From a virus (taxonomy: Duplodnaviria > Caudoviricetes), in IMG/VR virus record IMGVR_UViG_3300028197_000002: a stretch of DNA of 64,000 nucleotides. One strand, written 5' to 3'. The translations under genes were made by a program, and so were the position numbers. Positions 21,295 to 53,804 of the stretch are shown here, piece by piece. The notes under the pieces are model-generated. The model was not told the origin of the DNA and searched no databases. It worked only from the letters and a program-made list of their open reading frames with translations. Each line of letters starts with the position of its first letter. The stretch's first letter is position 1.

Positions 21295-22326
21295 ATGAAA
21301 TTGACCGAAGAACAAAAATTTGCTCTTAAAAAAGTAGTAAAATTTAAAAATAATGTTCAGACAATTGGCGGTTATGCTGGAACCGGTAAAACTGTTTTGA
21401 TAAGAAATTTATTTGAACTTCTCCCCAACTTCTCTTTTTGTGCTTATACGGGCAAAGCAACTAATGTGTTAAGAAAAAAAGGCATAGAAACTGCTCAAAC
21501 GATTCACAGCTTGATTTATTCTGCTCATGAAATTGATGGTCAAGTTTATTTTAGTTTGATTCCTGATTTGGATTGCGATGGAATCGTTGTTGATGAAGCC
21601 TCGATGGTTAGTGAAGAGATCTATAAAGACTTATTATCTTTCAACAAGCCCATTATTTTTGTTGGAGATCACGGGCAGCTTGAGCCAGTAGGCGATAAGT
21701 TTAACCTGATGCAAGATCCTGATTTTAAATTAGAGCACATTCACAGAAACGCAGGCGAAATTGCTCATTTTGCAGAATTCATAAGAAATGGATATCGGCC
21801 TGCTTCTTGGGAGCATAGGTATCCTTGCAAAAATGTTAAATTTGTAAAAAACTACAAAGATCACGTTTCTGATGTCGACCAAGTAATTTGCGCTTTTAAC
21901 AACACTAGAGTTTCTATAAACAAGCTGGTTAGGAAAAATCTTGGTAAAAATGTTGATATTCCTGAAATTAGCGATAAAGTAATTTGTTTAAGAAATAATT
22001 CAAAAGAGAAAATATTTAATGGAATGATTGGTTGGATAGGATGGTTTTATAATAAACATGTTATTGAGTTTGTGACAGAGGATAATTTTTCTTGTAAAGT
22101 TCCTCTTGATTTAAAGTGCTTCAATAAAGCGCGTTATGAGTTTGAGTTTGAAAAAGATTCCCCAAATCCTTTTGATTATGCTTATGCAATTACTTGTCAT
22201 AAGGCTCAAGGAGATGAGTTTGATAGTATATTGGTAGTAGAGCAATCATCTAGTTCTTGGGATCATGTTAGATGGTGTTACACAGCGGCTTCAAGAGCGA
22301 AAAAATCTATTGTTTGGTGTTGTTAG
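21295..22326 (+). CDS. RecD/Dda-like SF1B helicase
   Basis: GGYAGTGKT, AQTIHS, VVDEASM, VGDHGQLEPV, YAITCHKAQG, YTAASRAK. Confidence 0.92.
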   Translation: MKLTEEQKFALKKVVKFKNNVQTIGGYAGTGKTVLIRNLFELLPNFSFCAYTGKATNVLRKKGIETAQTIHSLIYSAHEIDGQVYFSLIPDLDCDGIVVDEASMVSEEIYKDLLSFNKPIIFVGDHGQLEPVGDKFNLMQDPDFKLEHIHRNAGEIAHFAEFIRNGYRPASWEHRYPCKNVKFVKNYKDHVSDVDQVICAFNNTRVSINKLVRKNLGKNVDIPEISDKVICLRNNSKEKIFNGMIGWIGWFYNKHVIEFVTEDNFSCKVPLDLKCFNKARYEFEFEKDSPNPFDYAYAITCHKAQGDEFDSILVVEQSSSSWDHVRWCYTAASRAKKSIVWCC

Positions 22327-23459
22327 TCTTGTCTGATTAGATAGCTTTCGCTTAAGAATTTTTCTTGTGATTTTGTTATTTCTCTTGGAGTTTGTTTCAA
22401 GAAATCTGTGCCTTGATTAGTTTCGTATTCTAATGCTATTTTAAATGTTTCATCAAGAAGTTGAAGTTTTTCATTTTTAATTCGCCAATATTTTAGAGGA
22501 TACTTATCACTTATGATTTCGCCTGTTGAACTTAGTTTTACTATATTTGAATTTATTTCGTTTAAATGAGGATTCTTATCATTTGAAAGTTTTAATGTAA
22601 GTAAATATTCTATTTCACTAAATTCATTTTCTAATACATTTTCTTTTAATTTAATTAGTTCTACTATTTCTTTTATTTTTGGGTTTCTATTTGGACATAT
22701 GTTGTGAATGTGAAAAATCCAACCCGAAAGGTAATCCTGTAATAGGCTTCCTTGAGAATCAATTAAGCTTGTTTGAATTCCGTGTATGCCTGTAACTTTA
22801 CATAAATTAAAAAACAGTTGGTCAGTAAACCCGTCAGCGATCATAGATCTTTCTTGAATTACATATTCGAATTTTTCAACTACTTCAGATATTGTTTTAT
22901 TTGAACAAATTAAAATTTCGTGTTCATGAGCAAGATTGTGATCTTTGCATTTGTTTACTTCTACATTTGATTTTGTTTTAGATTTTACATATTCTATTTT
23001 TTTGTACAAGTCATGTCTTTCAAGAATTTTTCTAGTTAACTCTACGTTTCCATGTGACAATTTAGAAATGAATAGATATTCTTTTTCTGCATTGTGACGA
23101 TTGAGAAAATTCATCATTGAATCTATATCTGTAGATGTGTCGTCATCTATTTTCACTATCCATTTTGAATTTTCGTAAAATTCTTTTTTTAAATAAAAAT
23201 TATAAACTTTTGCTGCTGGATGGTCCCAATTATGTTCTAAGTATTTTAAATCTATGTTCTCATTTTCATGATATCTTGAAAAATGCTTATTTAATTCTTC
23301 TTGAGATCTTATTTCTGTACCTGTAAGAAAACACAATAAAATTTTATTTTGATTGCAATTTACAATTCCCACCTCGTTGAATTGTTTGATTCTTTTAGAA
23401 TCTCTCATGTGAACGGGCAGGAAGATTGTTGCGTCATATTTGTAATTTTTAGTTTCCAT
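22323..23459 (-). CDS. Putative glycosyltransferase (GT-A, DDD motif)
   Basis: WIVKIDDDT resembles galactosyltransferase/Fringe-like DxD context. Confidence 0.45.
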   Translation of the reverse strand: METKNYKYDATIFLPVHMRDSKRIKQFNEVGIVNCNQNKILLCFLTGTEIRSQEELNKHFSRYHENENIDLKYLEHNWDHPAAKVYNFYLKKEFYENSKWIVKIDDDTSTDIDSMMNFLNRHNAEKEYLFISKLSHGNVELTRKILERHDLYKKIEYVKSKTKSNVEVNKCKDHNLAHEHEILICSNKTISEVVEKFEYVIQERSMIADGFTDQLFFNLCKVTGIHGIQTSLIDSQGSLLQDYLSGWIFHIHNICPNRNPKIKEIVELIKLKENVLENEFSEIEYLLTLKLSNDKNPHLNEINSNIVKLSSTGEIISDKYPLKYWRIKNEKLQLLDETFKIALEYETNQGTDFLKQTPREITKSQEKFLSESYLIRQD

Positions 23460-23463
23460 AATC

Positions 23464-23472
23464 TATAATAGT
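23464..23472. promoter_or_regulatory. TATAATAGT motif in a 17-nt divergent spacer
   Basis: Reads TATAAT on + and TATTAT on -; recurs at 35984, 41625, 48182, 50789, 61350. Confidence 0.6.
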
Positions 23473-23476
23473 TATT

Positions 23477-24217
23477 ATGAGCGGATTTGATACCATTATT
23501 ACAGGAACAGGGCGATGTGGCACTGGTTATTTTGCCAAGCTTTTGAATAGTATGGGAATTTTATGCGGCCATGAATCTGTTTTTAATTTAAATGGAGTGA
23601 AAATAGCTAAAAAAAGAATTTCAGGAGAAGTTCCTTTTGTAATAAGTTGCACTTGTGGCGCTCAATTCACTGGAAAAGCACACAAAGAAACATGCATGTC
23701 AAATATTTTGAAAGAAATAAAAGGCAAAAGTCTTAATGCCGATTCCAGTTATATGTCAGCGCCTTTCTTAGATGATGAAATTTTTAAAAATTATAATTTT
23801 ATTCATGTTTTGAGAAATCCTTATGATGTGATAAAATCATTTGCACAAGTCGCTAATTATTTTAAAAAAGAAAATAGTCCACTTCATTCGATTGGTTTTG
23901 AAAATTTTATAAAGTCTCATTTAGGCATTGTTTATGATAATGACTTCGATCCAGCAGACAGAGGTTTTTTGTATTATGTTGGTTGGAATAAAATGATTAA
24001 AGACAAAACTCATAATCGAAAAACACTAGTTTATAGAGTGGAAGAAAATGATGAAAATAAAATTTTAGATTTTTTAAATAAAAATAGTTGTGATTTAAAT
24101 TTAAAGAATGAAAAAATAAATCATTGGAAAAACTACAAGATTGATGAGCCTCTTGAATTTAAGGTCTTTGAAAAAGATTTTAACCAGCTTTTGATAGAAT
24201 ATAAGGATTTTTGTTGA
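23477..24217 (+). CDS. Sulfotransferase-like P-loop protein
   Basis: ITGTGRCGTGY..GHE..IHVLRNPYDVIKS. Confidence 0.7.
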   Translation: MSGFDTIITGTGRCGTGYFAKLLNSMGILCGHESVFNLNGVKIAKKRISGEVPFVISCTCGAQFTGKAHKETCMSNILKEIKGKSLNADSSYMSAPFLDDEIFKNYNFIHVLRNPYDVIKSFAQVANYFKKENSPLHSIGFENFIKSHLGIVYDNDFDPADRGFLYYVGWNKMIKDKTHNRKTLVYRVEENDENKILDFLNKNSCDLNLKNEKINHWKNYKIDEPLEFKVFEKDFNQLLIEYKDFC

Positions 24218-25128
24218 TGAAATGCTTAGTTACAGGTGCAGATGGTTTGTTGGGAAGTGCTTTTAGAAAAGCGCTGGGTAATGATCATATTTTTTTAACT
24301 AGGAAGAAATGTAATCTTTTGGATTCGGCAGAAGTTGACAATTTCTTTAATTTAAATAAAAAAAACTTTGACACTGTAATTCATTGTGCGGGTGTAGTTG
24401 GTGGCGTTTTTGCAAACATGAATGCAAACAAAGAGTTTTTTGATCAAAATTATATAATAAATAGAAATGTTTTAGAAAGTTCTTACAAATCTGATGTTGA
24501 TAATTTAGTTTCTGTTTTGTCTACTTGTGTTTTTCCTGATAATGTTGAATACCCTTTGACTCCTGATAAGATTAATTTAGGTCCTCCTCATGAATCTAAT
24601 CGAGGATATTCCTATGCTAAAAGGTTCTTATTTCATCAAACAAACATGTTTGGCAAGTTTCTAAATAAAAATTGGTATTCTGTAATACCAACGAACATGT
24701 ATGGTGAAAATGATTATTTTGATTTAGAAAAAAGTCACTTGATCCCAGCTTTAATTAGAAAAGCTCATGAATCTTCTAAAAATGAAAGTGATTTTGTTGT
24801 TTGGGGAGATGGAAGTCCTTTGAGGCAATTTGTGAAGTCTGATGATGCGGCCAATTTGATTTTATGGTCTATTGATAATTGGAAAAAAGATCGTCCATTT
24901 ATGCTTGTTGATAAAAAAGAATATGCAATAAAAGATGTTGTTAGAATAATAGCGGATAAGTTCAACATTCCAGAGCATAAAGTGAAGTATAATTCTTTAA
25001 AGCCGAATGGTCAGTTCAGAAAAACAGCGGCATCAGATTGTGAACATTATGATTTCGTTTCTTTGGAAGATGGAATATCAAACACAATAGATTGGTATGT
25101 TACTAATGATTCAGTGATAAGAAAATGA
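24217..25128 (+). CDS. fcl: GDP-L-fucose synthase
   Basis: VTGADGLLG, HCAGVVGG, LSTCVFP, YSYAKR, PTNMYG, SHLIPAL, VWGDGSPLRQF. Confidence 0.9.
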   Translation: MKCLVTGADGLLGSAFRKALGNDHIFLTRKKCNLLDSAEVDNFFNLNKKNFDTVIHCAGVVGGVFANMNANKEFFDQNYIINRNVLESSYKSDVDNLVSVLSTCVFPDNVEYPLTPDKINLGPPHESNRGYSYAKRFLFHQTNMFGKFLNKNWYSVIPTNMYGENDYFDLEKSHLIPALIRKAHESSKNESDFVVWGDGSPLRQFVKSDDAANLILWSIDNWKKDRPFMLVDKKEYAIKDVVRIIADKFNIPEHKVKYNSLKPNGQFRKTAASDCEHYDFVSLEDGISNTIDWYVTNDSVIRK

Positions 25129-25850
25129 AAATTAAGCCTTACATATTTAACTATTGTAGATATTTTGAATCTTTTGATCTTTTGAATAGTTTCGAGTCAA
25201 AAGGATTAGAGGCAAAAGTTATAGATTGTTATTGCCAAAACAACTCTGATGTCCTGAAAAAATTGAGCTTTGAAAATAAACGAGTAATTTCTTTGCCTAA
25301 TGTTGGTTATTCTGGTCAATGGAATGCAATGTTAAATGACTTGAATGGTGAAGATGAAGTTGTTTTGTTGATTAATTCCGATGTGCAAATTTTGAATTTA
25401 GATCTTCTGTTGGAAAGAATGGAAAGGTTTTATTCAATTGAAAATTCTGGCATTTACGCTCCAAATGTTAATTGGACAAGTTGGACTTTTTTAAAAAAAA
25501 GTCTTGATAAGTTTGAAGACTTTCACATAGTTCCAGCCACAGATAGTATGATTTGGAGTTTAAGAAAAGACATTGCTTTTAAAGTTGGAGAAGTTGATCT
25601 TAGTGTCAATAAGTGGGGATGGGGAATAGAAGTTGTTGCTTCTTATTTGTGCAATATAGAAAATAAACTTGTTGTTAGAGATTACGAAGTTCTTTGCAAA
25701 CATCCCAGAAACACTTCGTATTCTAATACTGCATCTAGAATTCAAATGGACAATTGGTTCGACTCTTTTGAGTTCTCAGAAGATCTTTGGAAGCACTTTT
25801 ACTCTAGAAATAATTATGGATTTAAGAGTGGAGGAATTACTCTTCTATAA
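25125..25850 (+). CDS. Putative GT2-like glycosyltransferase
   Basis: NVGYSGQWN..LLINSDV..WGWGIE. Confidence 0.6.
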   Translation: MKIKPYIFNYCRYFESFDLLNSFESKGLEAKVIDCYCQNNSDVLKKLSFENKRVISLPNVGYSGQWNAMLNDLNGEDEVVLLINSDVQILNLDLLLERMERFYSIENSGIYAPNVNWTSWTFLKKSLDKFEDFHIVPATDSMIWSLRKDIAFKVGEVDLSVNKWGWGIEVVASYLCNIENKLVVRDYEVLCKHPRNTSYSNTASRIQMDNWFDSFEFSEDLWKHFYSRNNYGFKSGGITLL

Positions 25851-26033
25851 AACTTTACTAGCATAAGCATTGCGCAAGGTAACTAAAAAATTCCAAGAAA
25901 ACGCAACAATTAAAAAGATATAGCTAAAGCCAAAGATCAATACGACAAAAGTTAAAATAAAAATAAATTGTGCTGGAATAGTTGGGATCATAACACAATT
26001 TAATTTTTTTCTAATACAAAATCCACAAAACAC
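25845..26033 (-). CDS. Possible small membrane protein
   Basis: Hydrophobic IFILTFVVLIFGFSYIFLIVAFSW; start uncertain (ATG 25991 possible). Confidence 0.4.
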   Translation of the reverse strand: MFCGFCIRKKLNCVMIPTIPAQFIFILTFVVLIFGFSYIFLIVAFSWNFLVTLRNAYASKVL

Positions 26034-26935
26034 ATTTCCATTTGCATTTCTGGAAAACTGTTCATTTCGAATTTTTTAAGTATCTTGCTTTTAAATATGG
26101 AATTATTTTTGAAAAAGTCTTCTACTTTTTCTTTTTCTATGTTTTCTGAAATTATTTTCATTTTACATTGTTCTACTAATTCTTTATAGGTGCTAACAGG
26201 CCGATAAACTTCAAGAGAGTTATCTATTTCCACACCCAGTTCTTCCATTTCTTTTTGATTTAATACAAGATGAGCAAAGGCTTTATTTAGTTTTCTGTAT
26301 ATATGTCCACCATGTCTTGAACACCAAGGATGAAAACGTATGTGTATTTTTCCATTGGGTTTAAGCAAGCTTTTTGCTGTTGATATTAAATCTATTGGAT
26401 GTATTTCTTCTATATGATCTATAACATCGTAAATTAGAATTGTATCATAAGGAGCATTTTTCTTAACTTTGTCCTTATCTCTTGTCAAAAGAAAATTTTT
26501 ATTTTCTTGTTCCCAATTTAATTGTCCTTTTTGGTGCAGATCATATCCTACGGCAAAGGAAGCTTTTTCATTTGAAGCGGCAAGCACAGTGTGTCCTTCG
26601 CCACAGCCAATATCTAGAAACTTTTTTCCAACAAGTTCATCATCTACGAAAAAGTTAACAATTCCTTCTGCTCGCTCAAGCTTATCTTCTTCTGAATCTT
26701 CATCTAATATTTGATAGTGACCGATAGCTTCAGGCCAATCGGAAGAGTTTAATAGATCTAAGATAGACGTTTCTTCAGGAGGATTTTCTACTATGGAAGC
26801 GCCTTGAATAACAACGTTTTCTTCCTCTATACATCTTTCTAAGAGATCAAGATTTTTGTCTAAAATATTTATTTTTTGTCTAATATCGGTGATGTTATTT
26901 TTTGTTAAGTATATTAAGTTTAATATTTCTTCCAT
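26000..26935 (-). CDS. Class I SAM methyltransferase (paralog of 48228-49118)
   Basis: KFLDIGCGEGH, YDVIDH, HPWCSRHGGH. Confidence 0.85.
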   Translation of the reverse strand: MEEILNLIYLTKNNITDIRQKINILDKNLDLLERCIEEENVVIQGASIVENPPEETSILDLLNSSDWPEAIGHYQILDEDSEEDKLERAEGIVNFFVDDELVGKKFLDIGCGEGHTVLAASNEKASFAVGYDLHQKGQLNWEQENKNFLLTRDKDKVKKNAPYDTILIYDVIDHIEEIHPIDLISTAKSLLKPNGKIHIRFHPWCSRHGGHIYRKLNKAFAHLVLNQKEMEELGVEIDNSLEVYRPVSTYKELVEQCKMKIISENIEKEKVEDFFKNNSIFKSKILKKFEMNSFPEMQMEMCFVDFVLEKN

Positions 26936-26951
26936 TTTACTACTTTATTTT

Positions 26952-27407
26952 ATGAATAGTTACAATAGCTTTATAACAGACAATGAGGCCTATAGACATA
27001 TATTAGTTAATATCGTAAAAAACTTGAGCCATATTCAGGTTTTAAACTCCAAGCTAGTAACGTCAGGCCGTGCTGTCGCTCATCTTATGAATTTTAAAAA
27101 TTATAAAAATTTAAATATTGGCGAATGCTTTTTTGATTCTGTTATGATTTCCTTAGAAGAAATAGATGACGACTGGCCCAAAAATATTTTTGTGATAAGT
27201 GATAATCTTAAAAAAAACCAAAGCCAGATTCAGCAATGGTTGAATTTTGAAAAACAGATGTGTGTTTTTGAGGATTATGCAAACTTTTATATTTTTACAA
27301 ATGAAAATGTAAAATTTGATCACCCAAGACTGAAAGTTTTTGATTTAAGTGATTCTGAAGATGAAATTTATAAAATTTTAAAAGAGGAGGATGTTTTTAA
27401 TGGTTAG
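26952..27407 (+). CDS. Hypothetical protein
   Basis: Start refined to ATG 26952, 16 nt from the divergent start. Confidence 0.6.
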   Translation: MNSYNSFITDNEAYRHILVNIVKNLSHIQVLNSKLVTSGRAVAHLMNFKNYKNLNIGECFFDSVMISLEEIDDDWPKNIFVISDNLKKNQSQIQQWLNFEKQMCVFEDYANFYIFTNENVKFDHPRLKVFDLSDSEDEIYKILKEEDVFNG

Positions 27408-28194
27408 TGTAAAAACTGTGAAACCTATAGCTATATCTCCTTTTTCAAAAAGCAGAGTTGATATCATCATACCTTTTCACTCTCAATATGATAAAGTTAC
27501 TTCTTTAGTAAAAAGCATATTGTTTTCTGTTAAAAGCAATCCTTATCAAATAACTTTGGTAGATGATTGTTCTGATAACAAAGATTTTCACAAGGAGATT
27601 CATAATCAATTTAAGCCTGAAGAAAGAAGTATATTTAAACCTATTGTTCGTTGTATAAGAAATGAAAAACAACTGGGATTTGGAGGTTCTCTGCAAGCTG
27701 GGTTCGAAAACACAAGCTTGCCTTGGGTTCTTTTCATGCACTCTGATTGTTTTGTAGAAGATCCTAATTTCATGCTAGAGATGGGCAGGTCTTTACTAAG
27801 TTGGAGAGATCAAAAGGTTCCTGTTAAAATGGTTTCTGCTTGTTCTAATAATTCAGGTGATTGTTCTCTTGCTAAAAAAGATAAAAAAGATGTTGAAGGA
27901 AAAGATTTGATATTAGAAGAAGGTTCTCTACCTTTGTTTTGTTCAATGTGTCATAGAGATCTGTTTGGACATATACAAGGGTTCATAAAGCCTTATCCTT
28001 ATGCTTGGTATGAAGGTGAAGAGCTTGCTTTTAGAATGAAGAGATTTAGATTTCAACAAGGCGTTTCAGGAAAGTCTTGGATTAGACATCAAGGAGCAGC
28101 AACAATTAAATATCTTTGGAAAAAAGATAAAACTGGCGAAATTAAAAAAATAATGGAGCAGAATAGAGAACTTTGCATACAGGACATGAAATAG
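27400..28194 (+). CDS. GT2 family glycosyltransferase
   Basis: DIIIPF, TLVDDCS, LGFGGSLQAG, FMHSD; GAGGAGG RBS. Confidence 0.85.
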   Translation: MVSVKTVKPIAISPFSKSRVDIIIPFHSQYDKVTSLVKSILFSVKSNPYQITLVDDCSDNKDFHKEIHNQFKPEERSIFKPIVRCIRNEKQLGFGGSLQAGFENTSLPWVLFMHSDCFVEDPNFMLEMGRSLLSWRDQKVPVKMVSACSNNSGDCSLAKKDKKDVEGKDLILEEGSLPLFCSMCHRDLFGHIQGFIKPYPYAWYEGEELAFRMKRFRFQQGVSGKSWIRHQGAATIKYLWKKDKTGEIKKIMEQNRELCIQDMK

Positions 28195-29085
28195 ATGAAA
28201 GCGTTAGTTACTGGTGGAGCTGGATTTATAGGAAGTCATATTGTTGATTTACTTATAGAATCTGGCCATGAAGTAATCGTTTTAGACAATTTGTCTTCAG
28301 GTAAAATAGAAAATTTAAATAAAAAAGCCAAGTTTGTTGAAATGGATCTTCTATCAGATCAAATTGTTTGGAACGACGGAAGGTCAAAGTATTTTGAAGA
28401 CGTAGATGCAGTCTTTCATGTAGCAGCAATGCCTAGAGTTCAGCCATCTATTGAAGATCCTTTGGGTTCAAATAGACAGAATGTTGAAGCCACTTTGAGA
28501 GTTTTGGAATATTGTAGAAAAAACAACGTAAGAAGGTTTGTTTTTAGTTCTTCTAGTAGCGTTTACGGTGACGCTGAGAAGCTTCCTACGGACGAATTGT
28601 GTGCAATATGCCCAATGAGTCCATATGCTCTTCAAAAGCTTGTAGGAGAGCAGTATTGTAATCTATATGGCAAGTTATATGATTTGGAGACAGTCTGCCT
28701 TAGATATTTTAATGTCTATGGAGAAAGGATGTCGGATGATGACTTGGCATATTCAACAGTAGTAAGTGTTTTTAATAAGCAAAAAGAACAAGGATTGCCT
28801 CTTACTATAAACGGCACAGGAGAACAACGCCGAGATTTTATTTATGTTAAAGATGTTGCAAGAATGAATTTGATAGCAATGGAGCATAAAGATTTAGGAA
28901 ATGGAGAAGTTGTCAATGTTGGCTCAGGCAAAAATTATTCTGTAAATCAAATAGCTGAAAATTTCAATTCCGAAGTCATCTACAGACCAGTTGTTTTAGA
29001 GCCAAAGGAAACTTTGTCTTGTGTAGATAAAGCAAAGTCTTTCGGGTGGAATCCAACAGTGGATTTAATGGATTGGTTGAAATGA
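28195..29085 (+). CDS. NAD-dependent epimerase/dehydratase (UDP-sugar 4-epimerase-like)
   Basis: VTGGAGFIGSH, FSSSSSVYG, SPYALQK, LRYFNVYG, RDFIYVKD. Confidence 0.92.
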   Translation: MKALVTGGAGFIGSHIVDLLIESGHEVIVLDNLSSGKIENLNKKAKFVEMDLLSDQIVWNDGRSKYFEDVDAVFHVAAMPRVQPSIEDPLGSNRQNVEATLRVLEYCRKNNVRRFVFSSSSSVYGDAEKLPTDELCAICPMSPYALQKLVGEQYCNLYGKLYDLETVCLRYFNVYGERMSDDDLAYSTVVSVFNKQKEQGLPLTINGTGEQRRDFIYVKDVARMNLIAMEHKDLGNGEVVNVGSGKNYSVNQIAENFNSEVIYRPVVLEPKETLSCVDKAKSFGWNPTVDLMDWLK

Positions 29086-46428: not shown

Positions 46429-46466
46429 ATTTATATAAATTAGTTGTATTACTATATTTATATGAC

Positions 46467-47279
46467 ATGTTGAAGATTAAAAAAATTTTGTGTTGTTTTG
46501 CTTTTGGTGGTTTGAATGATGTGATGTGTCAAACTTTGAAAGCGTTTGATTATTGTGTAAAGCATAAAAGAAAGCTTCTTTTAGACACAAAGCAATCTAG
46601 ACTTGAGAGGGATATAGCAGACTATTTTAATTTAGAAAGCGATATATTTTTAAAAAACGTTCATCCTCCAAAAATTACTTTTCAATATAGAAGTTCTGGA
46701 ATTTGCAGCGAGGCAGGGGATTATTATAAAGTTGATTACAATAAAAAGTATGGCGATTTTTTGTTGATTAATGCAAATAATAATGAAACTTGCGATGTTG
46801 CAAATATATTTTTCAAAACGTTTAGTATGAAAAGTTTTCTTTTAGATTTGATACGTGAAAGGCTATCCTGTCTCCCAGAAGATTACATATCTGTTCACGT
46901 AAGAAATACAGATTACTCTTCTGATGTTTATGATTTTTTAAAAAATAATAAACATCATTTTGTCAGAAAGAATATTTTTTTGGCATCTGATAATACAGAA
47001 ACATTATCTTTTTTAAAAAAAGAATTTGAAATTATTGGATCTAATGTTTTTTCTTTTTCTAACATACCAAAATTTGATTCTAGTTTTAAAGGAGGAATAC
47101 ACAAGTATAAAGTTGAAGATAAAGACAGTCTCAATATAGATGCTATTTCTGATTTGGTTTTATTGTCTTTAGGAAACAGATACTATTTTGCCCCAAGTAG
47201 ATCTTGGTATTCTTTGAGTGCTAAAAAAATGCATGAAGACAAAGATTTTAAAATGAAATTTTTAGATCAACTAATTTAA
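46467..47279 (+). CDS. NodZ/O-fucosyltransferase-like GT-B protein
   Basis: GGLNDVMCQ, SVHVRNTD, FLASD, DLVLL. Confidence 0.7.
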   Translation: MLKIKKILCCFAFGGLNDVMCQTLKAFDYCVKHKRKLLLDTKQSRLERDIADYFNLESDIFLKNVHPPKITFQYRSSGICSEAGDYYKVDYNKKYGDFLLINANNNETCDVANIFFKTFSMKSFLLDLIRERLSCLPEDYISVHVRNTDYSSDVYDFLKNNKHHFVRKNIFLASDNTETLSFLKKEFEIIGSNVFSFSNIPKFDSSFKGGIHKYKVEDKDSLNIDAISDLVLLSLGNRYYFAPSRSWYSLSAKKMHEDKDFKMKFLDQLI

Positions 47280-48164
47280 TAAAATTTTATATTGTTTAAT
47301 TTTTCTTAAAGCATATCTTCCTGTTTGATTTATATTTATTTGATTTTCATATAAACCTTGTCTATTGTCCATTAAATGTAAAAAAATAGGTTCGTTTGAT
47401 GTAGAATTTTCGTATTCGAATGTGGTTTTTCCATTTTCTTTTGTTATTTTATTTATAAGTTTTTTGTTATGATGTGGCAAAAAACAATCATAACAATTAT
47501 ATTTTTGTGGATTCAATATGTTTAAAGGAATATTTAATTTTTTCATTGAATTGGCTAAGGCAACTTGCCCCGTGTAATACTTGAATTTTTTTTCTAGAGT
47601 TGGATAGCTATGAAATAGCTCGGTGCCAATGTCTATTAAATATTTGGATGGAACGACTACGAATCCAAAATTTATATAATATTTATTTAGTGTTTTTTCT
47701 GATATTCCTATTTTATTTAGTTCAGTTCTATTTACATAAGAATTATCTAATGCGATGCATCCGTGCATTTTATTTTTGTCTAAACTAAATACCTCATCTA
47801 GACTATTGCAGCATAACATATCTACATCAATCATAATGCAAATTTCTGATTTTGGTTTTATGAACCATCTACATGGCAAGCCCAATTCCCAGAAGTAAGG
47901 ACAATAAATAAATTCAACATTTTCTCTAACTATTCTTGAGTTTTTGAATTTTGTTATTTTTTCTATTTCTTCGTATTTAATTTTTTTCATGCCGAATTTA
48001 TTCGTAATCTCAGCATTATTTTCTTTTTTTTCTCCTTGAAAAATACAAGAAAAGTAAGTTTTATTTGAGCAATTTATTTTTATTGATTGAACTAGGTTTT
48101 CTAATCCTTTGAACATCCAATTGTTATTGCTCAACATCATTATAAAGTGAACTGAGTCGGGCAT
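47271..48164 (-). CDS. GT8-like glycosyltransferase
   Basis: IMIDVDML, INFGFVVV, GQVAL, FLH. Confidence 0.6.
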   Translation of the reverse strand: MPDSVHFIMMLSNNNWMFKGLENLVQSIKINCSNKTYFSCIFQGEKKENNAEITNKFGMKKIKYEEIEKITKFKNSRIVRENVEFIYCPYFWELGLPCRWFIKPKSEICIMIDVDMLCCNSLDEVFSLDKNKMHGCIALDNSYVNRTELNKIGISEKTLNKYYINFGFVVVPSKYLIDIGTELFHSYPTLEKKFKYYTGQVALANSMKKLNIPLNILNPQKYNCYDCFLPHHNKKLINKITKENGKTTFEYENSTSNEPIFLHLMDNRQGLYENQININQTGRYALRKIKQYKILLN

Positions 48165-48227
48165 TTTTTTATATTTCTTTTACTATTATACTTTTGTGTC
48201 TTATATGAGTAAAAGGAATAATTTTTA

Positions 48228-49118
48228 ATGACTTACCAAGAAGAAATTAATAAAATTTTGAGTTCTGATATAGATCCTCAAGAAAAGTTAAACGCAATAG
48301 AAAATCTTAAAAAAGAAGTTCCAGAGACGGAAGACTCGGAGTTTGAAAAATTAAAAAAAATATTAAATTCAGATGAATGGCCCGAAGCTGTTTTAGAATT
48401 TCAAATAGCAGACGACACTTCTGAAGAAGATAAGATCGACAGAGCAGAAGGAATAGTTGACATACTAATTGAAGAATCATTAGAAAACAAAAAATTTCTT
48501 GATTTTGGTTGCGGAGAAGGACATGCTGCCAAATATGCTTCTGAAGATTCCGCTATTTCAGTAGGTTATGATATTGAAAAACAAGGATCTTTAGAATGGG
48601 AAAATGATGAAAAATTTCTTTTAACTACTGATTTTGAAAAAGTAAAAGCAAAAGGTCCTTTTGATGCAATTCTTATTTATGATGTTTTAGATCATGCTGA
48701 AAATCCTGTCGAAGTTTTAAATCAAGCTAGTTCCGTTTTAAAAAATAATGGAACCATATATTTAAGATGTCATCCTTGGTCGAGTAGGCATGGAGGTCAT
48801 GCGTATAGAAAAATAAATAAGGCATTTGTTCATTTGGTTTTTTCTAAAGAAGAGTTGAAAAACTTAGGAATAGATAATGGTCATAACAATAAAGTCTTAT
48901 TTCCTATTGCGACTTACAATGGTATTCTCGCAGAAGTACCGGGGTTATCTGCAAAAGATCCTGATATCGAAGAACAGGAAGTCGAACCATTTTTTAAGAA
49001 CAATGAATTAGTTAGAAAAAGAATACTACAAGTATTTGGTAGAAAAAATTGGGAAGAAGCTTGCCCTTCATTTCAAATGGGTCAATGTTTTTTAGATTAT
49101 GTCATTAAGGCCAAGTAA
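48228..49118 (+). CDS. Class I SAM methyltransferase (paralog of 26000-26935)
   Basis: KFLDFGCGEGH, YDVLDH, HPWSSRHGGH. Confidence 0.85.
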   Translation: MTYQEEINKILSSDIDPQEKLNAIENLKKEVPETEDSEFEKLKKILNSDEWPEAVLEFQIADDTSEEDKIDRAEGIVDILIEESLENKKFLDFGCGEGHAAKYASEDSAISVGYDIEKQGSLEWENDEKFLLTTDFEKVKAKGPFDAILIYDVLDHAENPVEVLNQASSVLKNNGTIYLRCHPWSSRHGGHAYRKINKAFVHLVFSKEELKNLGIDNGHNNKVLFPIATYNGILAEVPGLSAKDPDIEEQEVEPFFKNNELVRKRILQVFGRKNWEEACPSFQMGQCFLDYVIKAK

Positions 49119-50074
49119 TGTCTAAGCCTTTGGTTAGATGGACCATAGGTAAGTCCAAGCAAAAAAGCTCATACAAAATATTGGACGTGTCTATTAGACA
49201 GATGATTAGTTTGTATTCTGATAGGTTTGACTATTGTGTTCTTTATAATCACATAGAAGAAAAAGACATTCTTTTTTTGAAAGAAAAATACCCAAATGTA
49301 GTTTTTACAAAACAAAATTGGAAACTTTTTCCTGTCAATTTAAGTCGTCCTTCTGATGTGGGCGTGGGCGAGCACAATCAAATAATAAATGGTAGTTTCT
49401 GGAAAATTTGTCCGCCTCGACTGAACCCAGTTGGGCATGAAATCTTTCTTGACAATGATTTGGTTTTTTTAAAAAGACCAAAAGCAATAGAAGATTTTCT
49501 TTCTAGTAAAGATAAAAATTTAATTATAAGAGATTCAAATGTTTACTTAGGAAAGTATCAAGGTTTATTTGAGAATGAAAAACAAGGTTATAACTCGGGA
49601 GTAATAGGACTTCGTCCAAATTATAATTTTGAAAATCATATAGTTGAAAATTCAGGTTTTTTAGATGATGTTAATGACTATGGTGATGAACAAGGTTTGT
49701 TAATGTATGTTTTATATAAAACAAATCCAATAATAGGTTCTTCCGAGAGTTTTGTTGGAATTCACCCGGACAAATTGTTTTTAAATGGCATTTCTGATTC
49801 TAGGTATGAGCATTTAAAAAAAGAAGATTTAGATAAAAAAAAATTTTTGCAATTTTATTTAGATGAAAAGACAGGAAGTTGGAAGAATTTTAATGACTTT
49901 CAAAGTTTTGAAAGTGAAATGAATATTACCGCTCCATTTGGGAAACTCATATCGAAAGAAGAAACTCTTAGAATTTTGAGAGAAACTTTTTCAAATGCTG
50001 ACGTTGTTCATTTTTTAAAGTCGAATAGACTTTCTCATTTTCCTTGGAATTATTTTCGATTTAAATTTATATAA
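49118..50074 (+). CDS. Putative glycosyltransferase, KPLxRW family (copy 2)
   Basis: KPLVRWTIG..WKICPPRL..HEIFLDND..NSGVIGL..DEQG. Confidence 0.6.
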   Translation: MSKPLVRWTIGKSKQKSSYKILDVSIRQMISLYSDRFDYCVLYNHIEEKDILFLKEKYPNVVFTKQNWKLFPVNLSRPSDVGVGEHNQIINGSFWKICPPRLNPVGHEIFLDNDLVFLKRPKAIEDFLSSKDKNLIIRDSNVYLGKYQGLFENEKQGYNSGVIGLRPNYNFENHIVENSGFLDDVNDYGDEQGLLMYVLYKTNPIIGSSESFVGIHPDKLFLNGISDSRYEHLKKEDLDKKKFLQFYLDEKTGSWKNFNDFQSFESEMNITAPFGKLISKEETLRILRETFSNADVVHFLKSNRLSHFPWNYFRFKFI

Positions 50075-50768
50075 AATTTTTATTTAATTCAAAGTCTTTT
50101 TTAAAAGCTTTTCGTATAAGTTTTTTATTTTCCGGTGTCAAATAGTCTTTGTAGTTATGGCCTCTTTTTCTATGGCTGTGATTTTCACAAACTATGTTTT
50201 TTAGGTTTATTTTATATTTTTTGTTTATTCTTTCAATTCCTTTTTCTATATGCTTTATGTTAATTAACTCGTTTATTTCTTTTGTTACAAATTGACCCGC
50301 TGAATGGCTGTAACAACTTAAACAATCGGCAGGTTTAATTCCTTTAATTCTTAATTTTAAAAAATTTTTAAAATTTTCACATTTTAATTTGCACTTATAC
50401 TTTTCATAAGTTTTTCCTGTTGATGCCGCAAGGTCTGGATTCAAGCGTGCCAATTTTGAAAAGGCTGTGTGTTGTACTTCTTTGCCATGTTTGTGGTGCA
50501 AATAACAACTAACTGCTCTTTCATATGGATTTCTATAAAATTGAATTTTTAAATATTCTTTAAATTCATCTCGATCAACAGGGATGTTAATTCGGATTTG
50601 CGAGTTAGTTATTGGTAACCGATGCGTTACTAAATGTGCTTTGAACCTTTTAGTTTTGTCATATGATTCAATGTTAGAATAATCTATAAAAATATTTTTA
50701 ACAGAAGTGCTTGCGCATTTTTGAGTTGTTATGAATATAATTTTTTTTTCGTCATTAATCAATATCAT
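50067..50768 (-). CDS. Sulfotransferase family 2 protein
   Basis: FITTQKCASTSVK, RNPYERAVS. Confidence 0.75.
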   Translation of the reverse strand: MILINDEKKIIFITTQKCASTSVKNIFIDYSNIESYDKTKRFKAHLVTHRLPITNSQIRINIPVDRDEFKEYLKIQFYRNPYERAVSCYLHHKHGKEVQHTAFSKLARLNPDLAASTGKTYEKYKCKLKCENFKNFLKLRIKGIKPADCLSCYSHSAGQFVTKEINELINIKHIEKGIERINKKYKINLKNIVCENHSHRKRGHNYKDYLTPENKKLIRKAFKKDFELNKNFI

Positions 50769-50833
50769 TTTGAATCTTGCTGTTATTAACTATTATAATT
50801 TATCTATTATTGTTAAAAACAAAAAGGGTTTCG

Positions 50834-51751
50834 GTGGTAAACATAAAGTCTGACAAGCCAATTTTAAGATGGGTGCTAGGCCATTGTAACAAGCACAGTC
50901 TTTCTGTTTTAAATGCATCTATTAAGAGTGCTATTAACTTTTATGAATCAGAATTTAATTATTTTGTTCTTTATAACGAAGGAGTTGAAGAAGAAAAGTT
51001 AGGCCTGCTGAAGAATAAATACAAAAACGTAAATTTTTTAAAACAAGATTGGGCTAATCTGCCTTTTAATTTAAATAAGCCTTCGCATTTGGCCGCTGGT
51101 AGAGTCGATCAGGCTCCAAGCAACCAAGTGAATAATGGAAGTTTTTGGAAACTTTGTCCTCCAAGATTATCTTTAGGTGTTCATGAAATTCTTTTAGATA
51201 ATGACGTAGTATTTTTAAAAAGACCAGCTTTGATAGATGAATTTCTTAGTAGAAAGGATAAGAATTTAATAACAGAAGACACAGTATCTTATAATGGAAG
51301 TTTTGAAAAATATTTAGGTCGAGCATATAACGCTGGCATTGTAGGACTGAGGCCAGAATATGATTTCGAAAAAGATCTGTTAGAGAACTATGAACTTATT
51401 GATCAAACAAATGAATCTTATGCTGAAGAACAAGGTTTGACAATTTACACTTTATACAAAACTGATCCTTTAATTGGATCATGCAAAGATTTTGTTGGTC
51501 TTCATTGTGATAAAATCTTCTCATCTAATTTAAAAAAACATGAGAGCGAAATGAGAGAAGATTATTATTTGTTTGGGTCAAGGTTAGAGCCTTGGGATAC
51601 AAGAGTTTTATTTGAAGTTTTGTCTAATAAAAATTCTTGCAATTTGTTGAACCATGTTTTTTCAACCGCAGAGTCTATACATTTTTTAGGAGTAAATAGA
51701 AGAGAGAAGCATTTCGGATGGAATTTTTTCAAAAGTCTTAAAAAATGTTAG
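50834..51751 (+). CDS. Putative glycosyltransferase, KPLxRW family (copy 3)
   Basis: KPILRWVLG..WKLCPPRL..HEILLDND..NAGIVGL..EEQG; start uncertain (GTG 50834 or TTG 50777). Confidence 0.6.
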   Translation: MVNIKSDKPILRWVLGHCNKHSLSVLNASIKSAINFYESEFNYFVLYNEGVEEEKLGLLKNKYKNVNFLKQDWANLPFNLNKPSHLAAGRVDQAPSNQVNNGSFWKLCPPRLSLGVHEILLDNDVVFLKRPALIDEFLSRKDKNLITEDTVSYNGSFEKYLGRAYNAGIVGLRPEYDFEKDLLENYELIDQTNESYAEEQGLTIYTLYKTDPLIGSCKDFVGLHCDKIFSSNLKKHESEMREDYYLFGSRLEPWDTRVLFEVLSNKNSCNLLNHVFSTAESIHFLGVNRREKHFGWNFFKSLKKC

Positions 51752-52401
51752 ATTTAAGTAAAAACATATCTTTAGTGGCTATAGGTTCAACGAGAATCAA
51801 AGAAACTCATTTGGCAATTAGAAAATGTTGCTCTCTAGCTAAATTTTCTTCTGTTCTGTATTTTACAGATAAGAATAACATAGGGCATGACGACTGTGTT
51901 AAGTATATTGAAATTCCTAAAATAAAAAGCAAATTAGAATACCAGTCTTTTGTTGTTAAAGACTTTCCTAATTACGTTCTTCCTCATTTAAATAAGTCTC
52001 ATATTTTAAATATTAGTTGGGACGGTTTCATTGTTAATCCTAATGCTTGGAAAAATTATTTTTTGGAATTTGATTACATAGGAGCGCCTTGGGTAAAAGA
52101 AGCGAGTCCTATTTTAGCTGGACATTGTGGGAATGGTGGGTTTTGCTTGAAAAGCAGAAAGTTTTTAGAAGCTCAAGATTCTATAGAAGATCTTAGACAG
52201 TACACACCAGCAATAGAAAGGTATGAAGATGTTACTCTTTCTTTTCATTTCAGGAAGAAATTTGAAAGTTTAGGTTGTAGTTACGCTCCTGTTTTTGTTG
52301 GAAATGAATTTTCAACAGAGCATGGAAATTATGATAAACACAAATCTTTCGGTTTTCATAACTTAAGAATTAACAAGAAATTTGTCAATAAACTGCTTTA
52401 G
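51745..52401 (+). CDS. DUF5672-like glycosyltransferase-related protein
   Basis: WDGFIVNP..FDYIGAPW..GNGGFCLKS. Confidence 0.8.
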   Translation: MLDLSKNISLVAIGSTRIKETHLAIRKCCSLAKFSSVLYFTDKNNIGHDDCVKYIEIPKIKSKLEYQSFVVKDFPNYVLPHLNKSHILNISWDGFIVNPNAWKNYFLEFDYIGAPWVKEASPILAGHCGNGGFCLKSRKFLEAQDSIEDLRQYTPAIERYEDVTLSFHFRKKFESLGCSYAPVFVGNEFSTEHGNYDKHKSFGFHNLRINKKFVNKLL

Positions 52402-52675: not shown

Positions 52676-52706
52676 TATTATTATTTTTTTTATAATATTT
52701 ATACTT

Positions 52707-52737
52707 AAGCCTTTGTAGCAATACAGAGGCTTTTTTT
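52707..52737 (+). terminator. Rho-independent terminator with GCAA tetraloop
   Basis: AAGCCTTTGTA-GCAA-TACAGAGGCTT followed by T run. Confidence 0.85.
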
Positions 52738-52763
52738 ATGTCAAATTACTTATTTAAACTTAG

Positions 52764-52993
52764 ATGCTTGTTACAATACTCCTAATCGCGTTTGCCATTC
52801 CTAGTTATAGAGCATTATTCGCCTGTTAGAGAGCGTGTAAATTTAATTGAACTAAATCATGTCTATCATCCTAACGGCTCTACAAAGCTCCCTCAGTTCA
52901 TTTATAAGCGATTTAAAAAGACATGGAAGAGTATCTGTTGGAAATAGAGAACTTCTTTCTAAGATTATGAGGATTTCAAATGAGAAAAATTAA
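52764..52993 (+). pseudogene. Possible frameshifted remnant of an exported protein
   Basis: Signal-like MLVTILLIAFAIPS in one frame, VRERVNLIELNHVY in the +1 frame, GNRELLSK in the third frame. Confidence 0.3.
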
Positions 52994-53804
52994 CGTCAGG
53001 GTTTCTTCTGGGCTGGGTGATAGGCTTTTGACATTGCTTTTTTATTATGTTAATTTTGGATCTGAAAATGAAATAAATATTTTTTGGGAAAAGAATAATT
53101 GTTTGAATTGTGATTATGATAAGCTTTTTAAAAATAAAGTAAAACTTTCATTTGGAAATGATAATCTATTTTCCTTACCTTCCGATGTTCCTGTTATAAG
53201 CAGAAAAAATTTAGTGATAAATTATTTAAAAAGTTTAAAAAAGCAGGATGTTCTTATAAAAGGAGAAGTGTTTGATAAAACTTCTGATTTTAAGAAGCTT
53301 GATTATAAAAAATACTTTAAAGAGATTCTTAGTCCTTCAGAGGACATTCAGTCTGCTGTCAATGAGTATATTAAAAATAATTTTAATTCAAAAATAATTG
53401 GGGTTCATTTCAGGGCGGCAGACAAACTTTGTCCCAAAACTTTATCTTTTTTTTCGCCTAAAAAATCTTTGTTCCAAATTTTAAAAGAATATGATTTGGC
53501 GATTAAGACTTTTTTGACCGATGATTGCAAAATTCTTCTAGCCACAGATGATTCAGGTCCTAGATCTCCGTGTTCATCTGATATTCAAAATTTAAAATTA
53601 AAAGATTATTTTAAAGAAAAATATGGAAATAAAGTAATCGAGTTTCCTTGTCGATCTCTTGCAAGAAACACTGAAGAGGGCATAATTGATGCTTTCCAAA
53701 CTTTGATTTTGTTGTCGAAATGTGATTGTTTTGTTGGTTCTTGTCGATCTAGTTTTTCAAAATTAATCTGCGTCAATTTTGACGATAGTTTCAAATTGGT
53801 TTAG
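52980..53804 (+). CDS. NodZ/fucosyltransferase-like GT-B protein
   Basis: GLGDRL, GVHFRAAD, LLATD, LSKCDCFVGS..SSFS. Confidence 0.75.
   Translation: MRKINVRVSSGLGDRLLTLLFYYVNFGSENEINIFWEKNNCLNCDYDKLFKNKVKLSFGNDNLFSLPSDVPVISRKNLVINYLKSLKKQDVLIKGEVFDKTSDFKKLDYKKYFKEILSPSEDIQSAVNEYIKNNFNSKIIGVHFRAADKLCPKTLSFFSPKKSLFQILKEYDLAIKTFLTDDCKILLATDDSGPRSPCSSDIQNLKLKDYFKEKYGNKVIEFPCRSLARNTEEGIIDAFQTLILLSKCDCFVGSCRSSFSKLICVNFDDSFKLV

Follow-up and report, generated by a model that had tools for sequence, protein, structure and literature searches.

The 64,000-nucleotide (nt) stretch analysed here, called the window throughout, is IMG/VR virus record IMGVR_UViG_3300028197_000002 and belongs to an uncultured marine tailed phage with a genome of ~300 kb. 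Between positions 22323 and 53804 it carries a gene island that is best explained as a modular, rapidly exchanging locus for the biosynthesis and tailoring of glycans. The place of the island in the genome is a conserved slot bounded by a Dda-like helicase and an RNA ligase, and its content is modular. The replacement of whole cassettes between strains in this slot, not recorded in an earlier note made from the sequence alone, is the most informative property of the locus.

The island is a run of 37 back-to-back open reading frames (ORFs) of at least 100 amino acids (aa) in ~31.5 kb, with products of 142-581 aa (median 266), in a window that is dense in coding sequence and has ~30% GC. The earlier note had described roughly 40 consecutive genes, nearly all for glycan enzymes. 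The consecutive run is borne out at the slightly lower count, and the enrichment is strong, with 28 of the 37 island ORFs related to glycans against 3 of the 34 flanking ones (Fisher p=9e-9). "Nearly all" was somewhat generous, given that about eight of the 28 assignments are weak. The other nine comprise two non-glycan proteins, one with leucine-rich repeats (LRR) and one flavodoxin-like, and seven ORFs that stayed without assignment after comparison with Pfam at E values up to 1 and with PHROGs. Assignments were based on Pfam, NCBIfam curated cut-offs, PHROGs, ESM-Atlas structure neighbours and motif inspection. GC content is lower in the island than in the flanks (28.9% vs 32%), 12 island genes lie on the minus strand compared with 2 of 34 in the flanks, and the coding strand switches 21 times.

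Five island proteins belong to the modifiers of nucleotide diphosphate (NDP)-sugars: two short-chain dehydrogenases/reductases (SDRs), one Fcl-like and one GalE-like, a short DegT aminotransferase, a WbqC protein and a PIG-L deacetylase. About ten proteins are glycosyltransferase (GT)-like. The tailoring set is made up of five sulfotransferase-like proteins, two carbamoyltransferases, four methyltransferases, one PhyH dioxygenase and one ATP-grasp ligase. Acyl-transfer enzymes had been claimed as well; the Pfam and NCBIfam annotation of the island proteins contains none. More glycan genes are found beyond the island, namely Glf and an RmlB-like dehydratase for NDP-sugars, GT2 and RmlC-like genes upstream, and GT2 and Sulfotransfer_2 genes downstream. 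The earlier naming of outliers holds for Glf at 16308, which passes its curated cut-off, and for the protein at 55111, which has tetratricopeptide repeat (TPR) matches and a C-terminus homologous to bacterial TPR+GT9 proteins. The supposed RfbB at 7797 is RmlB-like, with a score below the cut-off, and the supposed GT8 at 60542 matches no family.

All island enzymes are predicted to be soluble. A hydropathy scan of all window ORFs of at least 40 aa found no island protein with two or more hydrophobic segments, and the apparent N-terminal segments of the ORFs at 26856 and 50777 are an artefact of over-long TTG starts. As no island protein has two transmembrane (TM) segments or more, the island has no flippase, polymerase, exporter or initiating phospho-transferase. 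In agreement with this, the Wzx, Wzy, ABC exporter and phosphoglycosyltransferase (PGT) families of Pfam gave zero matches among the island proteins, as the earlier note had supposed. Neither approach found an initiating polyprenyl-phosphate sugar transferase of the WecA/WbaP type in the island; the scan found no polytopic protein in the window that could be a Wzx or Wzy (10-14 TM segments); and for a Wzm/Wzt or KpsM/T exporter the island offers no ABC/permease family and no polytopic protein. Bacterial O-antigen and capsule loci are otherwise close in content: NDP-sugar genes and several GTs stand in one cluster here too, the families Fcl, GalE, RmlB, Glf, DegT, WbqC, GT2/GT8/GT9 and the methyl- and carbamoyl-transferases are common to both, and so are the cassette-like build, the low GC and a serotype-style variation. 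The locus differs in being phage-borne and in having no PGT, Wzx/Wzy or Wzm/Wzt. Without these defining membrane components it cannot be counted among cellular O-antigen loci. Soluble enzymes throughout, with no machinery for export or initiation, fit the cytoplasmic pathway proposed earlier.

The comparison of island content among relatives revealed four versions in the same helicase-ligase slot. The window type (a) occurs as near-identical copies in several samples. A variant type (b) was found in ERZ1764445, ERZ10646134, ERZ23491322 and ERR9769375 and was compared with the window as contigs L002, L026, L027 and L028 (blastn, tblastn). Identity between the two is 97-99.8% over 24211-39876 and 96.6% over 49993-51809. 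Between these stretches the window has an 8.8-kb cassette of ten genes, where the variant has instead an unrelated one of 11.7 kb with 12 genes. The window cassette encodes the flavodoxin-like protein, FkbM, PhyH, LRR and ATP-grasp proteins, three assignment-free proteins, a sulfotransferase and a methyltransferase. The variant cassette includes PhyH and ATP-grasp proteins, two sulfotransferases, a 2-oxoglutarate (2OG) oxygenase, a B12-radical-SAM enzyme, a methyltransferase and a GT8-like protein; families common to both cassettes are only 31-63% identical. As L002 and L026 show, the variant also has an extra 243-aa gene (0.73 kb) at 39865/39876. The 615-aa B12-binding radical-SAM enzyme (L026:15519-17366, minus strand) and the 2OG-Fe(II) oxygenase do not occur in the window version.

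Version (c) is located on a 332,741-bp contig (ERZ27275810). Its GalE-like protein is 75% identical and the order of the left module is kept (helicase, 379-aa GT-like protein, sulfotransferase, Fcl-like SDR, through GT2). A sulfatase is inserted, the carbamoyltransferase block is absent, and a variant-type DegT - x - PhyH - y - ATP-grasp cassette follows, a gene order which recurs in versions (a), (b) and (c). The sulfatase is a 472-aa formylglycine-type enzyme (PF00884 + SGSH_C; gene 8567-9985), encoded beside sulfotransferase-like genes. Version (d) is on the IMG/VR contig G001 (204 kb, 34.7% GC), where the helicase is 66% identical. Its 18-kb island is bounded by the same helicase and RNA-ligase/PP-loop-ATPase, and shares with the window the Fcl-like SDR, a methyltransferase, the short DegT (64%), a viral GT-A beside a carbamoyltransferase, the flavodoxin-like and LRR proteins and a GT2. 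It also has one Sulfotransfer_3 gene. Sulfation was considered as a marine-specific trait and rejected on the basis of this gene and of sulfotransferases in other IMG/VR jumbo phages. Two independent Logan assemblies (L034, L035) stop near window position 50.5 kb, at the right edge of the variable cassette, which is consistent with mixtures of strains at this point.

It is tentatively favoured that the decorated glycan is assembled in the cytoplasm on a virion protein or another soluble-protein acceptor. Using established pathway knowledge, the RmlB-like enzyme would dehydrate its substrate to a 4-keto-6-deoxyhexose, the DegT enzyme would aminate it, and the ATP-grasp ligase and PhyH oxygenase could plausibly couple to it an amide-linked acyl or amino-acid group and hydroxylate this group. 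The Fcl-like and FUT/NodZ-like proteins would speak for fucose and Glf for galactofuranose. The PIG-L protein would expose a free amine, and the sulfo-, carbamoyl- and methyl-transferases would decorate hydroxyls. This would yield a short, anionic oligosaccharide with a high degree of substitution, probably containing fucose, galactofuranose and an N-acylated amino-deoxy sugar. Assembly would take place during infection, directly on the soluble acceptor and without an exported lipid-linked intermediate. The likeliest acceptors would be the phage's own virion proteins (fibres or capsid), with the TPR-GT9 fusion and the LRR protein as possible protein-recognition parts. Cassette swaps between strains would then change the glycan "type" in the manner of serotype loci.

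A foreign unit made by ~10 GTs would normally need a cognate Wzx/Wzy for its export. This need, together with the absence of carrier initiation, flipping, polymerisation and export, makes direct cytoplasmic glycosylation the most economical arrangement. The TPR-GT9 fusion hints at glycosylation directed to proteins, as may the retention of the LRR protein in the island of G001 despite a helicase only 66% identical. The nearest structure clusters of two GT families are mainly viral and include Nucleocytoviricota, which leans towards virion-protein glycosylation; those viruses glycosylate their virions autonomously (PMC4691112). The narrower proposal, that the phage particle wears a complex coat of sulfated, carbamoylated and methylated glycan made wholly by the phage's own cytoplasmic enzymes and that co-circulating strains switch "serotype" by swapping cassettes, is put forward with more reserve, as one possibility.

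Several points weigh against glycosylation of the virion. The island is not beside capsid or tail genes, and the nearest verified fibre genes lie ~32-38 kb upstream of it. Freeman and colleagues are said to have found in 2023 that proven phage virion-glycosylation cassettes adjoin structural genes. Some eight of the GT and sulfotransferase assignments are weak, seven ORFs have none, and both the glycan and its acceptor are predictions from the genes. The T4-type late motif TATAAATA stands upstream of just one island gene, at 45877. The -10-like hexamer TATAAT is enriched upstream of genes (15 observed vs 3.8 expected), and a full sigma-70 promoter scan did not rise above shuffled sequence (92 vs 100.6±10.8). 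Soluble GTs also build ordinary O-antigen units at the inner face of the membrane, so that the missing TM proteins are compatible with the use of a host carrier and host export. The phage enzymes would in that case modify undecaprenyl-linked O-antigen, capsule or lipooligosaccharide intermediates at the inner membrane face, and a host flippase, polymerase or ABC exporter together with a ligase would display the altered, sulfated or carbamoylated glycan. The outcome would be a block to superinfection, or progeny kept from adsorbing to infected cells and debris. Such remodelling of the host surface is the principal rival reading and only somewhat less probable. It is the standard reading, as host O-chain modification, of the "LPS genes" (lipopolysaccharide genes) in P-SSM2, S-SCSM2R and the pelagimyophages, in the last of which GT8 is the commonest family (PMC1079782, PMC12801897, PMC7029224). 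WbqC, DegT and Fcl-like proteins in the island, like the RmlB-like protein and Glf outside it, belong to O-antigen-cluster families, and strain-level cassette exchange would be expected from an arms race with the receptor-binding proteins of competing phages. Upstream motifs that are mostly of the TATAAT type, not TATAAATA, would fit early or middle expression. Known phage serotype converters, however, carry membrane proteins of the Gtr type and the like, whereas the island encodes no such protein and no initiating transferase, flippase, polymerase or ligase; the host Wzx/Wzy would also have to accept a glycan made by ~10 foreign GTs. No near bacterial donor is visible: GalE-like homologs are 70-99% identical in the phage lineage and then drop to ~55% for marine "UDP-glucose 4-epimerase" entries. 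The mostly viral structure clusters of the GTs likewise speak against a host pathway, and no host could be assigned by comparison of the phosphoribosyl pyrophosphate (PRPP) synthetase and DnaJ.

The genes might also be independent single-gene modules acting on several substrates rather than one pathway with one product. The candidate targets would range from proteins, of host or phage, and small molecules to a Nod-factor-like decorated oligosaccharide and storage or compatible solutes. The 21 strand switches with many divergent single-gene units, and the independent coming and going of modules among relatives, would agree with this, as would phage HTVC008M, which has a carbamoyltransferase with PhyH-type oxygenases and no GTs among its replication genes. 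The enzyme set mirrors the decoration of a short oligosaccharide by the rhizobial Nod-factor enzymes (NodU/NolO, NodH/NoeE, NodS/NoeI, NodZ, NolK, NodB), that is, carbamoylation, sulfation, methylation, fucosylation and de-N-acetylation. The protein at 34211 has NodU as its top match in NCBIfam and that at 52980 matches NodZ weakly, at scores far below the equivalog cut-offs, so that the likeness is one of chemistry alone. The island has no chitin-synthase-type NodC and no acyltransferase (NodA), and its core, conserved in relatives with a helicase 66% identical, and the tight packing of its NDP-sugar, GT and tailoring genes argue for functional coupling; mixed targets are rather improbable. 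A more remote prospect is hypermodification of the DNA, with oligosaccharides placed on hydroxymethylated bases in evasion of restriction. Phage GTs related to LPS and teichoic-acid enzymes do attach mono- to trisaccharides to 5-hydroxymethylcytosine (5hmC), and the neighbours of the island are replication genes (helicase, ligase). Against this, the Pfam lists from ~-19 kb to +72 kb of the window hold no C5-methylase, TET/JBP/5mYOX, dCMP/dUMP hydroxymethylase or base kinase, thus no family generating 5hmC or 5-hydroxymethyluracil, in line with the earlier note. The number of enzymes is far above any known DNA-modification cluster, and we know of no DNA glycan with more than three sugars or with sulfation.

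There is next to no chance that the contig is cellular and the island an ordinary O-antigen or exopolysaccharide locus. Translation initiation factor IF3, DnaJ, ClpP/ClpX, PRPP synthetase, CsrA, peptide deformylase and sigma factors are encoded on it, and neither capsid nor terminase is among the genes verified. IF3, DnaJ, ClpP/ClpX and similar proteins are, however, typical "huge phage" accessories, and a caspase-like peptidase also belongs to the accessory genes around the island. Phage-type genes are found there as well: PhoH, a sigma-70-family factor, an HNH nuclease, an RNA ligase and the Dda-like helicase, which is nearest to phage helicases and whose profile finds jumbo-phage relatives in IMG/VR. 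A tail-fibre block at window -16.2 to -9.4 kb matches phrog_9729 (E 2e-22 and 5e-10) and includes a 965-aa Laminin_G_3 virion structural protein (phrog_8510, E 4e-11). A 194-aa protein at 19638 has homologs solely in aquatic phages (of Flavobacterium, Methylophilales, Pelagibacter and Tenacibaculum). Island DNA turns up in runs from at least 11 studies, of marine, sponge and viral metagenomes; one run, labelled viral metagenome, is of a virus-fraction library, and a relative is catalogued in IMG/VR. Most genes lack a family, the ~90 kb viewed contain no ribosomal or core metabolic genes, and every membrane component of an O-antigen or exopolysaccharide pathway is missing from the locus. The viral origin stated by the earlier note thus stands.

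Identical or collinear sequence is carried by Ga0209535_1000002 (259,238 bp), ERZ27249049:k141_471647 (302,863 bp) and shorter contigs; megablast against INPHARED gave no nucleotide match to cultured phages. The 204-kb G001, the nearest relative in IMG/VR, had no match to Terminase_6C/6N, Gp23, T4 portal or sheath, and its ten largest ORFs are helicases, a ligase, an HNH protein and similar. When the capsid was sought via homologs of the Gp23 of a distant relative, the top 120 matches were all near kin of that other phage. Among 185,579 species genomes, none has a close relative of the PRPP synthetase. The moraphages, aquatic jumbo phages of 200-307 kb with DnaJ/DnaK, several core GT orthogroups and Bacteroidota-like best hits (PMC12619734), are a possible home for the phage. 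Its size, DnaJ and GT genes fit, but the DnaJ is only ~30% identical to proteins from many diverse phyla.

Gene blocks of this kind are already known from big ocean phages. P-SSM2 has 24 "LPS genes" in two clusters (PMC1079782), and for S-SCSM2R, with 22 cell-wall genes including 13 GTs, the count has been described as possibly the highest of any marine phage (PMC12801897). Like ours, those genomes are of large lytic marine phages in which clusters of sugar epimerases, GTs and synthases lack export genes. Here, by contrast, 37 genes are contiguous in 31.5 kb, above both totals, and the set extends to five sulfotransferase-like proteins, two carbamoyltransferases, an LRR protein and an ATP-grasp/PhyH/DegT module. 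Both are T4-like cyanophages, and the island phage is likened to them by its glycan genes, not by T4-like core genes. Hypervariable host recognition clusters average 44.6 kb in pelagimyophages and 34.2 kb in cyanomyophages (Zaragoza-Solas et al. 2020, PMC7029224). They too extend over tens of kb, are rich in GTs (especially GT8) and NDP-sugar genes, and are non-syntenic between close relatives; our seawater tailed phage likewise has a non-syntenic island between conserved flanks. Those clusters lie inside the structural module and contain tail fibres, whereas the island occupies the helicase-RNA ligase slot, and Pfam and PHROGs detect no fibre-like gene in 22323-53804. The earlier note overstated the scale in calling it exceptional: it is above the P-SSM2 and S-SCSM2R counts, but the regions just cited reach 34-45 kb. 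Regarding content, carbamoyltransferases and PhyH proteins recur in marine myophages (carbamoyltransferase homologs occur in 142 phage records, mostly of cyanophages and Pelagibacter phages), sulfotransferases occur in other jumbo phages, and a PHROG sulfotransferase family exists. Scale and the content in sulfation and carbamoylation nevertheless exceed published cases. The distinguishing points are size and purity (no fibre genes), the density of sulfation and carbamoylation functions, the replication-gene slot, and cassette replacement between near-identical strains.

Two systems in which virions are glycosylated offer further comparison. The mycobacteriophages Che8, Corndog and Myrna reportedly glycosylate capsid and tail-tube proteins (Freeman and colleagues, 2023). 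Their cassettes also consist of soluble phage GTs and methyltransferases, act in the cytoplasm and lack export machinery. They are, however, sets of 2-5 genes beside structural genes, whereas the 37 genes described here, known from sequence, lie off the capsid genes and are bordered by a helicase and an RNA ligase. Sulfation and carbamoylation are not, to our knowledge, part of mycobacteriophage virion glycosylation. Giant viruses, with the glycans of the chlorovirus PBCV-1 capsid and Mimivirus fibrils, also have NDP-sugar pathways (6-deoxy and amino sugars) and many soluble GTs and methyltransferases, which work in the cytoplasm on proteins of the virion (PMC4691112). For two GT families of the island the nearest structure clusters belong to Nucleocytoviricota, a likeness at the level of fold and cluster. 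Giant viruses differ in infecting eukaryotes, and sulfation is not reported there.

Table 1. Genes of the island, its borders and outlying glycan genes (window coordinates; SAM, S-adenosylmethionine; TM-score, structural similarity to ESM-Atlas neighbours)
Feature	Position	Strand	Evidence and remarks
Dda/RecD-like helicase, conserved left border of slot	21295-22326	+	phrog_325 E 1e-75; position kept in relatives L013, L015/G001 and the 332-kb contig
GT-A-like (weak Fringe/GT31)	22323-23459	-	PF02434 E 4e-4, PF01762 E 1e-3, both below cut-off; first island gene in relatives too
Sulfotransferase 1	23477-24217	+	PF00685 E 5e-5, above cut-off; 5'-phosphosulfate-binding (5'-PSB)-like and RNPxDxxxS motifs
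GDP-L-fucose-synthase-like (Fcl-like) SDR	24217-25128	+	PF01370 E 8e-39; NCBIfam GDPFucSynFcl E 7e-53, below curated cut-off
241-aa protein	25125-25850	+	No Pfam/PHROG match; conserved in relatives
Class I SAM methyltransferase	26000-26935	-	PF13489 E 5e-12; paralog of 48228-49118, 47% identity
151-aa protein	26952-27407	+	No Pfam match
GT2 glycosyltransferase	27400-28194	+	PF00535 E 1e-13; phrog_3692; relatives 58-65% identical
GalE-like NDP-sugar epimerase/dehydratase SDR	28195-29085	+	PF01370 E 6e-66; NCBIfam galE E 1.5e-53, below cut-off
Viral-type GT-A glycosyltransferase	29082-29915	+	Atlas neighbours at TM-score 0.89-0.90, "glycosyltransferase" clusters of Nucleocytoviricota and Uroviricota; adjoins a carbamoyltransferase in G001 too
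234-aa protein	29910-30614	-	No credible match (Pfam, PHROGs)
Carbamoyltransferase 1 (NodU/CmcH type)	30634-32184	+	PF16861 E 1e-46
GT9-like (weak)	32177-32959	-	PF01075 E 4.5e-3, below cut-off
WbqC family (O-antigen-cluster family, unknown chemistry)	32970-33638	+	PF08889 E 1e-52
Methyltransferase-like (weak)	33631-34221	+	PF08241 E 1.6e-3; paralog of 20226-20846 (BLASTP E 1.5e-6)
Carbamoyltransferase 2 (NodU type)	34211-35956	-	PF16861 E 3e-63, PF02543; NodU E 2e-38; 33-37% identity to cyanophage and Pelagibacter-phage carbamoyltransferases
PIG-L/LmbE-type N-acetylglucosaminyl deacetylase	36051-36686	+	PF02585 E 7e-13
GT8-like GT-A paralog 1	36667-37467	-	Paralog of 49118 and 50834; invariant DxD-type LDND motif; Atlas neighbours of the paralog family GT8/Nucleotid_trans
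GT8-like (weak)	37506-38300	+	PF01501 E 4e-3, below cut-off
Sulfotransferase-like 2 (motif-based)	38270-39043	-	No Pfam match; KRSGN loop (by eye), RDxxNxxxS motif
Sulfotransferase-like 3 (motif-based)	39068-39868	+	No Pfam match; SRSGST loop, RKNLLDSFIS motif
224-aa protein	39865-40539	+	No match; extra variant gene lies just ahead
Short DegT/PseC-type sugar aminotransferase, 211 aa	40567-41202	+	PF01041 E 3e-22 in two stretches; NCBIfam PseC/LegC family
Replaceable cassette	41158-49993
Flavodoxin-like protein	41232-41660	-	PF00258 E 6.5e-5, below cut-off; 39% homolog within G001 island
FkbM-family methyltransferase	41659-42204	+	PF05050 E 3e-11
PhyH-type 2OG/Fe(II) dioxygenase	42206-43018	+	PF05721 E 5e-16; G001 island also has a PhyH gene
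LRR protein (protein-binding module)	43015-43881	+	PF12799 E 5e-13; 31% homolog within G001 island
ATP-grasp ligase	43878-45041	+	PF02655 E 2e-9; 33% homolog in variant cassette
242-aa protein	45152-45880	-	No match (Pfam, PHROGs)
Sulfotransferase 4 (weak)	45877-46428	-	PF13469 E 2e-4, below cut-off; PRSGQ loop, R...S motif
270-aa protein	46467-47279	+	No credible Pfam match; HxRxxD-type motif
297-aa protein	47271-48164	-	No match (Pfam, PHROGs)
Class I SAM methyltransferase	48228-49118	+	PF13489 E 7e-13
GT8-like GT-A paralog 2	49118-50074	+	Atlas GT-A/GT8/Nucleotid_trans neighbours, TM-score 0.57-0.72
Sulfotransferase 5 (Sulfotransfer_2)	50067-50768	-	PF03567 E 2e-12; phrog_3347 "galactose-3-O-sulfotransferase" E 7e-9
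GT8-like GT-A paralog 3	50834-51751	+	41% identity to 49118-50074
DUF5672 protein	51745-52401	+	PF18922 E 4e-16
FUT8/NodZ-like (GT23-type), weak	52980-53804	+	PF19745 E 6e-3, PF05830 E 8e-3, below cut-off
RNA/DNA ligase, conserved right border of slot	53872-54507	+	PF09414 E 1e-7; 67% homolog directly after G001 island
TPR + GT9-like glycosyltransferase fusion (outlier)	55111-56565	+	TPR Pfam matches; GT9-like C-terminal 290 aa
UDP-galactopyranose mutase Glf (outlier)	16308-17414	+	TIGR00031, 372 bits vs cut-off 304
dTDP-glucose-4,6-dehydratase-like (RmlB-like) SDR (outlier)	7797-8831	+	TIGR01181 E 2e-58, below cut-off

The motif-based sulfotransferase-like calls rely on loops of the type binding 3'-phosphoadenosine 5'-phosphosulfate (RSG[ST/N] ... 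R-x7-S). Sulfotransferase 5 gave zero tblastn matches in 50,697 phage records. The short DegT protein is not a fragment, because the short form is conserved across relatives, with orthologs of similar size in G001 (64% identity) and the variant (87%). These proteins of 196-211 aa (also L015:11799-12428 and L026:7075-7665) compare with a family model of 360 positions and retain the SxxxK motif. The HxRxxD-type motif of the protein at 46467-47279 suggests a fucosyltransferase-like fold; single-sequence AlphaFold2 models of this protein and of that at 47271 were unusable (pLDDT 39 and 32). A profile of the GT8-like paralogs gave no signal against 47271, 37506 or 60542 (hhalign), and a PDB sequence search with this profile and with the C-terminus of the TPR protein gave no match. 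The C-terminal 290 aa of the TPR protein have 1169 homologs, many with PF01075 (E down to 6e-78), which are bacterial TPR+GT9 proteins. One homolog lies on a 227-kb contig in a bacterial neighbourhood beside TPR-GT41 genes, and is silent on its use by phages.

Some neighbouring genes also deserve mention. A 174-aa protein (54580-55104), Ser/Pro-rich near its N-terminus and ending in a long acidic tail, is encoded 7 nt ahead of the TPR-GT9 gene, and could, speculatively, be its substrate or partner. The 1151-aa protein at 413-3868 has Gly/Ser-rich repeats of the "GG(V/I)SLSG" type and propeller-like "DGTKMF" repeats, belongs to no Pfam or PHROG family, and is possibly a fibre or glycan acceptor. 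A 120-aa protein at 18491-18853 combines a T4 capsid-targeting-like N-terminus (MLSFNEWLLQE) with a Cys/Asp-rich core and Lys/Asp repeats. The motif TATAAATA stands 61 nt upstream of its gene, which together with 45877 is one of only two window genes having it. The island may be transcribed: contigs from two metatranscriptome runs (0-2 mismatches each) together cover ~8 island genes, though these may stem from carried-over DNA. Downstream, a TilS-like PP-loop ATPase (PF01171) is followed after 7 nt by a tRNA with anticodon CAT (57433-57506; both within 56752-57506), possibly a phage tRNA-Ile2 that, paired with a lysidine synthetase from the phage itself, would decode AUA in a genome of 30% GC. 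A 75-aa CsrA homolog (PF02599; 62477-62704, minus strand) is encoded just after the PRPP synthetase gene. Ahead of the window, from ~-19 to -0.4 kb, there are genes for IF3, DnaJ, PhoH, peptide deformylase, a dCMP deaminase, an Fe-S assembly protein and a caspase-like C14 peptidase directly ahead of ClpP.

Large blocks of sugar genes recur in large ocean phages, and this locus is an extreme and unusually clean case. Its fixed slot and the whole-cassette differences between strains give a handle on the choice between a coat for the virion and a disguise of the host surface: cassette type can be set against the alleles of fibre or capsid genes, or against the phages that occur alongside. For recognition of the acceptor, the TPR-GT9 and LRR proteins are candidates. 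Were the virion to carry the glycan, sulfated particles would bear on adsorption, on stickiness to marine gels, sponges and mucus, and on recognition by grazers. Such a phage glycocalyx would be under diversifying selection, analogous to bacterial O-antigens and to the fibril glycans of giant viruses. A glycan on the host would mean that a lytic jumbo phage carries out serotype conversion on a wholesale scale. In both cases the island offers a supply of glycosyl-, sulfo- and carbamoyl-transferases yet to be characterised.

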